DNA from: Candidatus Zipacnadum vermilionense | GTDB taxonomy: Bacteria; Armatimonadota; Zipacnadia; Zipacnadales; Zipacnadaceae | Length of the DNA stretch: 64,000 nucleotides | Direction of reading: 5' to 3' | Assembly (NCBI GenBank): GCA_029821755.1 | Contig: JALGSV010000015.1 | Span: 1,936 to 65,935, forward strand | In this document: positions 28,067 through 29,413 of the stretch, piece by piece | Layout of the letters: each line of letters begins with the position of its first letter | Numbering within the stretch: position 1 is the first letter of the stretch | Program-made: the position numbers and the translations under genes | The notes under the pieces: model-generated | Database searches by the model: none | Told to the model about the DNA's origin: nothing | The model's input: the letters and a program-made list of their open reading frames with translations, nothing else

Positions 28067-29413
28067 ATGCTGATAGACCAAGCCGACATCCAGGTGCGCG
28101 GGGGAAAGGGGGGGGACGGGCAGGTCCTCTTCCGCCGGGAGAAGTTCGTGCCGCGGGGCGGACCGTCCGGAGGGGACGGCGGCCACGGCGGCAATGTGCT
28201 GCTGCGCGCCGATCCCAAGCTACGCACGCTGCTCGACTTCACTTACAAGTCGCTCTACTCGGCCGAGCCCGGCGATAACGGCGGGTCCAAGCAGATGACC
28301 GGCAAGACCGCACCCGACCTCTACGTCCGCGTGCCTCTGGGGACGGTGGTCTACGACGCCGAGACCGGCGAGCGCCTGGCGGACCTGGTGCGGGCGGAGC
28401 AGACACTGCTGGTCGCCCGCGGCGGCAAGGGCGGTCGCGGGAACACCCACTTCGCCACCTCTACCCGCCAGGCTCCGCGCATCCGCGAGCACGGATTGCC
28501 CAGTGAGGAGCGCCGTCTGCGCCTCGAGCTGCAACTGCTGGCCGATGTCGGGCTGGTGGGGATGCCCAACGCGGGCAAGTCCTCGCTGCTCAGCCGCATC
28601 TCCGCGGCCCATCCGCGCATCGCCGCCTACCCCTTCACCACCCTGGAGCCGGAACTGGGCGTGGTGCGTCTGGACGAGGACACCGAGTTCGTGGTGGCGG
28701 ACATGCCCGGCCTCATCGAGGGCGCCCACACCGGCGCGGGGTTGGGGGACCAGTTCCTGCGCCACATCCGGCGCACCCGGGTGCTCCTGCACTTGCTGGA
28801 CGCTGCCGGGACCGAGGGTCGCGACCCGCTCGAGGACTGGGCGACCATTAGCGCGGAGCTGGCCGCGTACGACCCGGTTGTGGCGGCGCTGCCGCAGGTG
28901 GCGGTGCTCAACAAGCTCGACCTGCCTGACGCGCAGGCCAACCTGCCGCGGCTGCGGGCGGCGCTGGCGGCCTCCCCGTGGCGCGGGCTTTCTAGCCCGC
29001 GTTCGGGAGAGCGGGATAGCAAGCTCGCCCCACGCGCCGAGGGTGCGCCAGTCTTCGCGATCTCTGCGGCGACGGGGGAGGGAATCGTGCCACTGCTGCG
29101 CGAGACCGCTCAGCGTCTGCGGGAGCTGGAGCCGGCCGAGCCAGAGACTGAGGCCCCGCTGCACCTGGAACTGCCCCCGCCGCCGGAGGTCCCGCTGCAG
29201 ATAATCCGCCGCTCCCCCGACCGCTACGAGGTACGGGGCACGGAGATCGAGCGCATCATGGCCCAGGCGGATTTCTCCAGTGGCGACGGCTCGGCCCACT
29301 ACCACCGGCTGCTGCGCAAGGCGGGGCTGTTCGACGCCCTGCGCGCCGCGGGTGCCCCGGAGGGCGCAACGGTAGTGGTGGCGGGGCACGAGATGGATTA
29401 CGTGCCGGATTGA
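28067..29413 (+). CDS. obg: GTPase Obg/CgtA
   Basis: Obg fold with the Gly-rich N-terminus (GGKGGDGQV...[12 protein letters not shown]) and the GTPase motifs [19 protein letters not shown] and NKLD. A C-terminal TGS-like domain is present. A REP element is inserted in-frame at codons around 303-324. Confidence 0.9.
28975..29038. repeat. REP/MITE-like element inserted in-frame inside obg
   Basis: CGTGGCGCGGGCTTTCTAGCCCGCG...CTCGCCCCACGCG encodes [23 protein letters not shown]. It lies between the conserved Obg segments [10 protein letters not shown] and [12 protein letters not shown]. Confidence 0.55.

Follow-up and report, generated by a model that had tools for sequence, protein, structure and literature searches.

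Does the gene for the essential ribosome-assembly GTPase Obg, in the 64-kb stretch of Armatimonadota DNA analysed here (the window), contain a palindromic repeat inserted in frame, or is the segment that resembles this repeat an old part of the protein? The original prediction favoured an insertion: a copy of roughly 64 nt at 28975-29038 in an otherwise canonical obg, with the reading frame kept open. The locus was compared with orthologous loci and proteins, the repeat was searched for in the window and in other genomes, and the protein was modelled.

The obg gene and its product

The translated gene contains the motifs G1 GMPNAGKS (165-172), G3 DMPG (212-215), G4 NKLD (282-285) and G5 SAA (333-335), and the precomputed Pfam families of an identical database protein (P0001) are PF01018, PF01926 and PF09269. 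The three-domain architecture of Obg, that is an N-terminal Obg fold, a G domain with G1-G5 and a C-terminal domain, is present, and the motifs and Pfam families bear out the prediction that the protein is otherwise canonical, NKLD included. Obg homologs were found with E values down to 1e-233. Sequence matches in the PDB include 1LNZ (1.9e-105), 1UDX (4.3e-103) and 4CSU, and a Foldseek search with the model of the protein gave Obg structures (1udx, 1lnz, 5m04 and 7bl2) as the best matches. The 125 residues C-terminal of the insert are in frame and align with high similarity to the orthologs. With its G motifs complete and the part behind the insert conserved and in frame, the gene still looks functional, as far as can be judged from sequence.

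An ORF of 532 codons with no Pfam match (29479-31077, plus strand) lies between obg and nadD. Its third-position GC is 0.72, compared with 0.8-0.9 in its neighbours. In the orthologous locus L004, unlike the window, nadD is found directly 3' of obg.

Extent and ancestry of the insertion

The size and boundaries of the insert were taken from a DNA alignment of obg with four orthologous loci (L001-L004), in which 71 nt stand in place of five ancestral nucleotides, a net gain of 66 nt; two substitutions adjoining the left junction blur the exact boundary. Within this stretch, positions 28977-29034 read CGTGGCGCGGGCTTTCTAGCCCGCG-TTCGGGA-GAGCGGGATAGCAAGCTCGCCCCACG, two inverted arms each of which is itself a small hairpin. 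The additional residues run from about A301/A302 to R323/A324 and lie within the G domain, between G4 and G5. The prediction was therefore essentially right about an in-frame copy of the palindromic element, the alignment giving 66 nt within 28968-29038 where about 64 had been proposed, and the frame does stay open, since the ORF is intact and the gain is exactly 22 codons without a stop. The extra peptide is also real, but it had been placed a few residues out of register, the trailing AEG being ancestral by the ortholog alignment. Its supposed position just before the C-terminal region did not hold, as about 40 residues of the G domain still separate it from the linker to the C-terminal domain.

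The window protein shares 82-89% identity over aligned positions with its eight nearest Obg orthologs. Six of them (P0002, P0004-P0006, P0008 and P0009; 425-427 aa) lack the 22 residues and read ...LPRLREAL-E-(A/G)EG(A/V)P-VFPISA... across the site. The extra length of P0007 (444 aa) comes solely from an N-terminal extension, and P0003 has an unrelated insert of 10 residues at the same point. In a set of 120 Obg sequences, the interval from L293 to S333 measures exactly 19 residues in 108 and 41 in the window protein; three other proteins have nine or ten additional residues in this loop. The four relatives' loci, 46 kb in total, contain no unit of the repeat family to which the obg copy belongs. 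Since the close orthologs lack the segment and 108 of the 120 proteins have the 19-residue loop, it is, by these sequence comparisons, a lineage-specific insertion and not ancestral. The insertion of roughly 22 residues anticipated by the original prediction was thus confirmed against both the close orthologs and the larger set. The finding named there as contradicting it, the same peptide in orthologs free of the nucleotide repeat, was not made: the peptide is missing from all 119 other Obg proteins in the comparison, with or without the repeat.

Structural context of the insert

An AlphaFold2 model of the window Obg, built on 120 sequences, had a mean pLDDT of 84.5. In it the insert follows helix alpha4 of the G domain and precedes strand beta6. 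Both the helix (287-302) and the strand (329-331, leading into G5) are kept, and residues 303-328 form coil, with pLDDT below 50 at 308-323. The phmmer alignments to the Obg proteins of B. subtilis (1LNZ) and T. thermophilus (1UDX) are interrupted precisely at the insert, where residues 299 to 325 of the query stand against residues 299 to 302 of 1LNZ. In Ras-like G domains the alpha4-beta6 loop sits away from the switch regions.

Low pLDDT and coil in the predicted structure suggest a surface-exposed insert. The modelling proposed with the original prediction thus returned a low-confidence coil, which would fit surface exposure. The alpha4-beta6 loop of Obg is permissive to insertions, because P0003 and three other Obg proteins bear extra residues there and the model keeps the flanking helix and strand, and it can be marked as a permissive insertion site of the G domain.

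The repeat family in the window

A 26-mer from the left arm of the obg copy, searched through the 64-kb window with up to three mismatches, gave six matches, against a mean of 0.00 in 100 dinucleotide-preserving shuffles. A search with a 24-mer half-unit found 14 half-units at nine loci, among them five inverted doublets (Table 1). Five of the nine loci are intergenic and four lie in coding sequence, a small sample. The unit has the consensus (TCCG)C-GT[GA]G-[GC]GCGGGC-TTTC[TC]A-GCCCGC[CG]-C(TCCCC), with the core form GT[AG]G-GCGGGCTTTCYAGCCCGC: an unpaired GT[AG]G tag is followed by a GC-rich stem of 8-9 bp and a 4-nt loop. GTGG or GTAG followed by a perfect 8-bp stem and a 4-nt loop was found at 8800(-), 24061, 27645(-), 28978, 43302 and 51712. 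Doublets are 58-68 nt long, and their two arms can be told apart as CGCGGGC...GCCCGCG and GGGAG-GGCGGGC...GCCCGCC-CCAC. Rfam at gathering thresholds reported only a tRNA (16742-16814) in the whole window and no known RNA family over the repeat.

Table 1. Position of obg, its insertion and the REP elements in the window (strand as given; a point denotes an unstranded feature)
Feature	Position	Strand	Remarks
obg (GTPase Obg/CgtA)	28067..29413	+	448 aa; intact ORF; GC3 0.88
obg insertion stretch	28968..29038	+	Replaces 5 ancestral nt; net 66 nt (22 codons), in frame; holds REP doublet
Left REP unit of obg copy	28977..29002	+	GTGG tag + GCGCGGGC/TTTC/TAGCCCGCG hairpin; 1/26 positions off window consensus
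Right REP unit of obg copy	29009..29034	-	Inverted, partly decayed; 4/26 positions off consensus
REP doublet and third, degenerate unit, intergenic	8734-8801 (doublet), third unit to 8829	.	Half-unit search, DNA fold
REP doublet in 533-aa membrane-protein ORF 22531..24132 (-)	24060..24117	.	In frame, codons 5-24; DNA fold z-score -6.7
REP doublet in rplU-rpmA spacer, same operon region as obg	27580..27646	.	DNA fold z-score -3.5
Doublet of second REP family (GTAGAGCGGGGGCTACGT...), rpmA-obg spacer just upstream of obg	27993..28059	.	
REP doublet with longer spacer, between convergent ackA and DUF4127 genes	39897..39974	.	Half-unit search, DNA fold
Single REP unit in 469-aa protein ORF 42504..43913 (-)	43301..43331	+	In frame, encodes GEGGLESPPYTE
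Single REP unit in GH2 gene 49099..52740 (-)	51711..51741	+	In frame, encodes GEGGLESPPHAEE
Stem variants of REP unit	31182-31205 and 61256		Half-unit/anatomy searches

Measured against this dispersed repeat, the left arm of the obg doublet agrees at 25 of 26 positions and the right arm at 22; private to the copy are the spacer TTCGGGA and the four changes in the right arm. The obg element folds no better than shuffled sequence (z-scores of -1.26 as RNA and -1.94 as DNA), so it appears decayed or reshaped, which fits a copy no longer maintained as a hairpin; the other four doublets have single-stranded DNA fold z-scores of -3.5 to -6.7. When the filled site was set against the empty sites of L001 and L002, no target-site signature or direct duplication was found at the obg junctions, resolution at the left junction being limited by the substitutions. 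A missing target-site duplication is compatible with HUH/Y1-type insertion, as in the IS200/IS605 family, without being proof of it.

Two further kinds of palindrome were noted. The second REP family, whose doublet directly precedes obg, also occurs at the orthologous spacers of L001. In the GH2 gene the REP unit is directly adjoined by an extra GTGG-tagged hairpin (GTGGCACCGGCGGCTCGCCGGTG, 51743-51765), to which the hairpin GTGGCACCGGTCTCTAGACCGGTG at 61256 is similar; these two may represent another REP variant.

Copies in other genes, orientation and reading frame

Besides obg, three genes of the window have in-frame copies that orthologs lack, encoding a 533-aa membrane protein, a 469-aa protein and the GH2 protein. 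As in its ortholog in L004, the ORF of the membrane protein starts at an ATGA overlap with the stop of the upstream glycosyltransferase gene; it offers no alternative in-frame start before the conserved region, and the ortholog is without the approximately 26 N-terminal residues. The peptide GEGGLESPPHAEE of the GH2 protein sits in a loop for which the close orthologs P0122 and P0124 have no counterpart, and most orthologs of the 469-aa protein have none for GEGGLESPPYTE.

The 469-aa protein has no Pfam match, and its homologs are largely from Armatimonadota. In the same loop of this protein, P0184 has a REP-like peptide (GEGGLEARPTRR), and P0187 and P0189 have unrelated inserts.

The obg copy had been described as lying in the opposite orientation, relative to the coding strand, to the copies in the GH2 and secreted-protein genes. 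The arms contradict this: the arms of the doublet follow one another on the sense strand of obg as they do on that of the ORF at 22531..24132, and the right arm is oriented like the single units of the GH2 gene and of the gene for the 469-aa protein. What differs is the frame alone, the other genic copies being read as GEGGLESPPHA.

In each orientation of the canonical doublet two of the three frames are free of stops, and the third has two TAG, one contributed by the CTAG of each loop. Of insertions at random, about two in nine would be both in frame and stop-free. The open frame needs no special mechanism, because two of three frames are stop-free and an essential gene keeps only insertions of this kind.

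Occupation of orthologous sites by different REP families

In the spacer between rplU and rpmA the window has a family-A doublet (27580-27646) and L001 a family-B doublet (GTAGGGCGGGGGCTACGTCCCCCGCC); L002 has a stem variant (8362) and L004 nothing. The sites concerned in L001 are 2404-2471 and 2837-2993. Similarly, the coding loop of the GH2 gene holds a family-A unit in the window (51711-51741) and a family-B unit in L109 (about 1430-1455). Different REP families at orthologous sites of sister lineages suggest re-occupation or replacement at fixed sites; if true, the pattern would point to site-specific replacement or to hairpin-targeted insertion.

The repeat core in other genomes and its association with RAYT genes

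A scan for the 23-nt REP core GTRGSGCGGGCTTTCYAGCCCGC, with one genome per species, returned at least 104 stretches (loci L005-L108). The hosts among the matches listed are several Armatimonadia MAGs, Chloroflexota (including the closed chromosome OY969567.1), Dehalococcoidia, Thermoanaerobaculia, Thermodesulfobacteriota, Phycisphaeraceae, Verrucomicrobiia and others.

At two of these loci the core accompanies a gene for a RAYT (REP-associated tyrosine transposase). L018 encodes a 169-aa protein with a Pfam Y1_Tnp match and a score of 83.3 bits against the NCBIfam model NF047646, REP_Tyr_transpos (cut-off 80); on either side of its gene lie inverted units of the obg-copy family, at 5573-5596 (+) and 6199-6222 (-). 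In L062 a doublet directly follows a RAYT fragment. Identity between the two proteins is only about 31%. The RAYT gene of L093 was rejected as evidence of association, having no flanking units of the family, so that only L018 and L062 count. In the window itself, Pfam scans of 30 ORFs revealed no Y1_Tnp domain and no transposase of any kind, and tblastn with the RAYT proteins of L018, L093 and L062 and an approximate E. coli RAYT sequence gave no match. Because the 64-kb window holds no RAYT gene, RAYT-driven movement of the repeat in this organism is argued from the other genomes.

Head-to-tail tandem arrays of the unit were seen in MAG contigs of Armatimonadia and Thermoflexales: L019 (1540-1780), L028 (1-300) and L010 (3180-3421), with periods of about 61, 45 and 52 nt. 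That the regular 61-nt arrays of L019 are CRISPR-like was considered and rejected, the material between the units being repeated and not unique. In a crude count based on unverified ORF calls, units inside long ORFs of high third-position GC numbered nine of 42 in two Armatimonadia MAGs (CAYRFY01 and CAZXDD01 loci), two of approximately 50 in the loci from other phyla and three of eight in the window.

Origin and fate of the insertion

The 22 additional codons of obg very probably represent a copy of a REP doublet (REPIN) inserted in the loop, with Obg still working and the peptide carried as a passenger. A family of REP doublets would have spread within the lineage of this genome, and one copy would have entered the codons of the alpha4-beta6 loop of the G domain, moved presumably by a RAYT acting on single-stranded DNA. 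The copy may have survived for having a length that is a multiple of three, a stop-free frame and a loop tolerant of extra residues. Most likely the added peptide is a flexible passenger without a function of its own, both tolerance and neutrality being suppositions here. That a loop peptide derived from a palindromic repeat stands in an otherwise intact obg, as first proposed, is upheld by the repeat family and by the close orthologs that are without it.

The passenger could instead have been put to use, the 22 residues forming a new interaction surface of Obg or the mRNA hairpin regulating the expression or stability of obg. The frame is kept, and the copy diverges from the consensus mainly in its right arm, which could reflect reshaping under selection; moreover, the 469-aa protein has REP-derived peptides at a single loop in two lineages, which suggests that such inserts can persist. 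We consider co-option unlikely, however: the insert is limited to one lineage and predicted to be disordered, its hairpin is no stabler than shuffled controls, and the presence of the same element in unrelated proteins speaks against a specific function, as is also argued in PMC3733652. The doublet could also have been moved as a classical MITE, by a DDE transposase recognising terminal inverted repeats, in place of a RAYT-dependent mechanism. A whole doublet does resemble a pair of terminal inverted repeats separated by a short spacer, and no RAYT gene lies in the window. Yet the obg junctions show no target-site duplication, GT[AG]G-tagged units also occur singly, RAYT genes of other genomes are flanked by this core, and the 30 ORFs scanned contain no transposase of any kind, which together make this origin quite improbable.

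Two further readings would remove the insertion event itself. A mis-join in a metagenome-assembled genome might have put the repeat inside obg; the window seemingly derives from a metagenome bin and represents a single assembly, the identical protein is known from one 88-kb contig, and a search of the metagenome contig collection gave no match to the insert sequence and no second contig with this allele. Against this, obg sequence continues collinearly and in one frame on either side, a typical sequencing read would exceed the 58-nt element, the gain amounts to exactly 22 stop-free codons, and the spacer TTCGGGA and the right-arm changes are private to this copy, hence no collapsed consensus; an artefact is accordingly very hard to credit. 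As for an ancestral segment lost by the relatives, with a secondary resemblance to the repeat, loop length does vary in a few Obg lineages, but the short loop is present in 108 of the 120 sequences, the closest relatives included, and the extra DNA agrees with a dispersed repeat in almost every position of its left arm and most of its right (25/26 and 22/26). This explanation has next to no plausibility.

Comparison with known systems

GTAG-tagged REPs were surveyed by Di Nocera et al. (2013, BMC Genomics 14:522; PMC3733652). They have a terminal GTAG (GTGG in some families, such as GTAG-20 of Opitutus terrae), stems of 5-13 bp and loops of 2-20 nt, are associated with RAYTs, and occur as singlets and as inverted dimers. 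In several species REPs were found wholly within ORFs, more than half of these intragenic REPs being dimers or groups that encode 20-30 aa, and the genes hit including uvrA, dnaE and those for tRNA synthetases; the variety of targets was taken to argue against function (PMC3733652). The obg copy resembles them in its GT[AG]G tag, short GC-rich hairpin, inverted dimer and encoded length of 22 aa, a likeness of tag and described anatomy. The hosts of GTAG repeats named there are Proteobacteria, Cyanobacteria, Chloroflexi and the PVC group; Armatimonadota, the phylum of the present case, is not among them. The five text supplementary files of the survey name neither Obg nor another GTPase.

REPINs are inverted REP doublets with a short spacer and a predicted long hairpin, proposed to be the unit moved by RAYTs and described as spread in extragenic space (Bertels and Rainey 2011, PLoS Genet 7:e1002132; PMC3116915). 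The window is similar in having five inverted doublets and differs in that four of its nine loci lie inside coding sequence. In tag and layout the sequence of the obg element matches a GT[AG]G-tagged REP arranged as a REPIN.

In-frame insertion into genes of functional proteins is shared with the RPEs of Rickettsia (Ogata et al. 2000 Science 290:347; 2002 Genome Res 12:808), palindromes that, as summarised in PMC10969869 and PMC3733652, lie in frame in many unrelated genes and give rise to peptide segments judged compatible with protein fold and function. The counterparts here are obg, the GH2 gene and the genes of the 469-aa and 533-aa proteins. According to the same two sources, RPEs are CGTC-tagged, with RPE-1 about 150 bp long, have no associated transposase and reside in obligate intracellular alphaproteobacteria. 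The window element, with its GT[AG]G tag and doublet of 58-68 nt, has neither this tag nor this length; the resemblance is functional, and the element is not a member of the RPE family. It is conceivable, although we rather doubt it, that the lineage is a free-living counterpart of the RPE hosts, in which REPs of the GTAG type routinely settle in frame in coding loops and in which sites are re-occupied by other families in sister lineages.

A peptide of mobile-element origin in an essential GTPase had been predicted to be notable. The case itself is real, but it is less exceptional than supposed, given that in-frame REP dimers (PMC3733652) and RPEs (PMC10969869) have already been described; in-frame insertion of palindromes is a documented kind of event, of which obg is a further example. 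For annotation it serves as a warning that "extragenic" palindromes can be translated and should be taken neither as gene boundaries nor as proof of a pseudogene. While the known behaviour of such elements is unchanged, obg, whose product is an essential GTPase of ribosome assembly, provides a clean, well-delimited in-frame REP doublet for which close relatives show the empty site, in a host phylum outside those named for GTAG REPs in PMC3733652.
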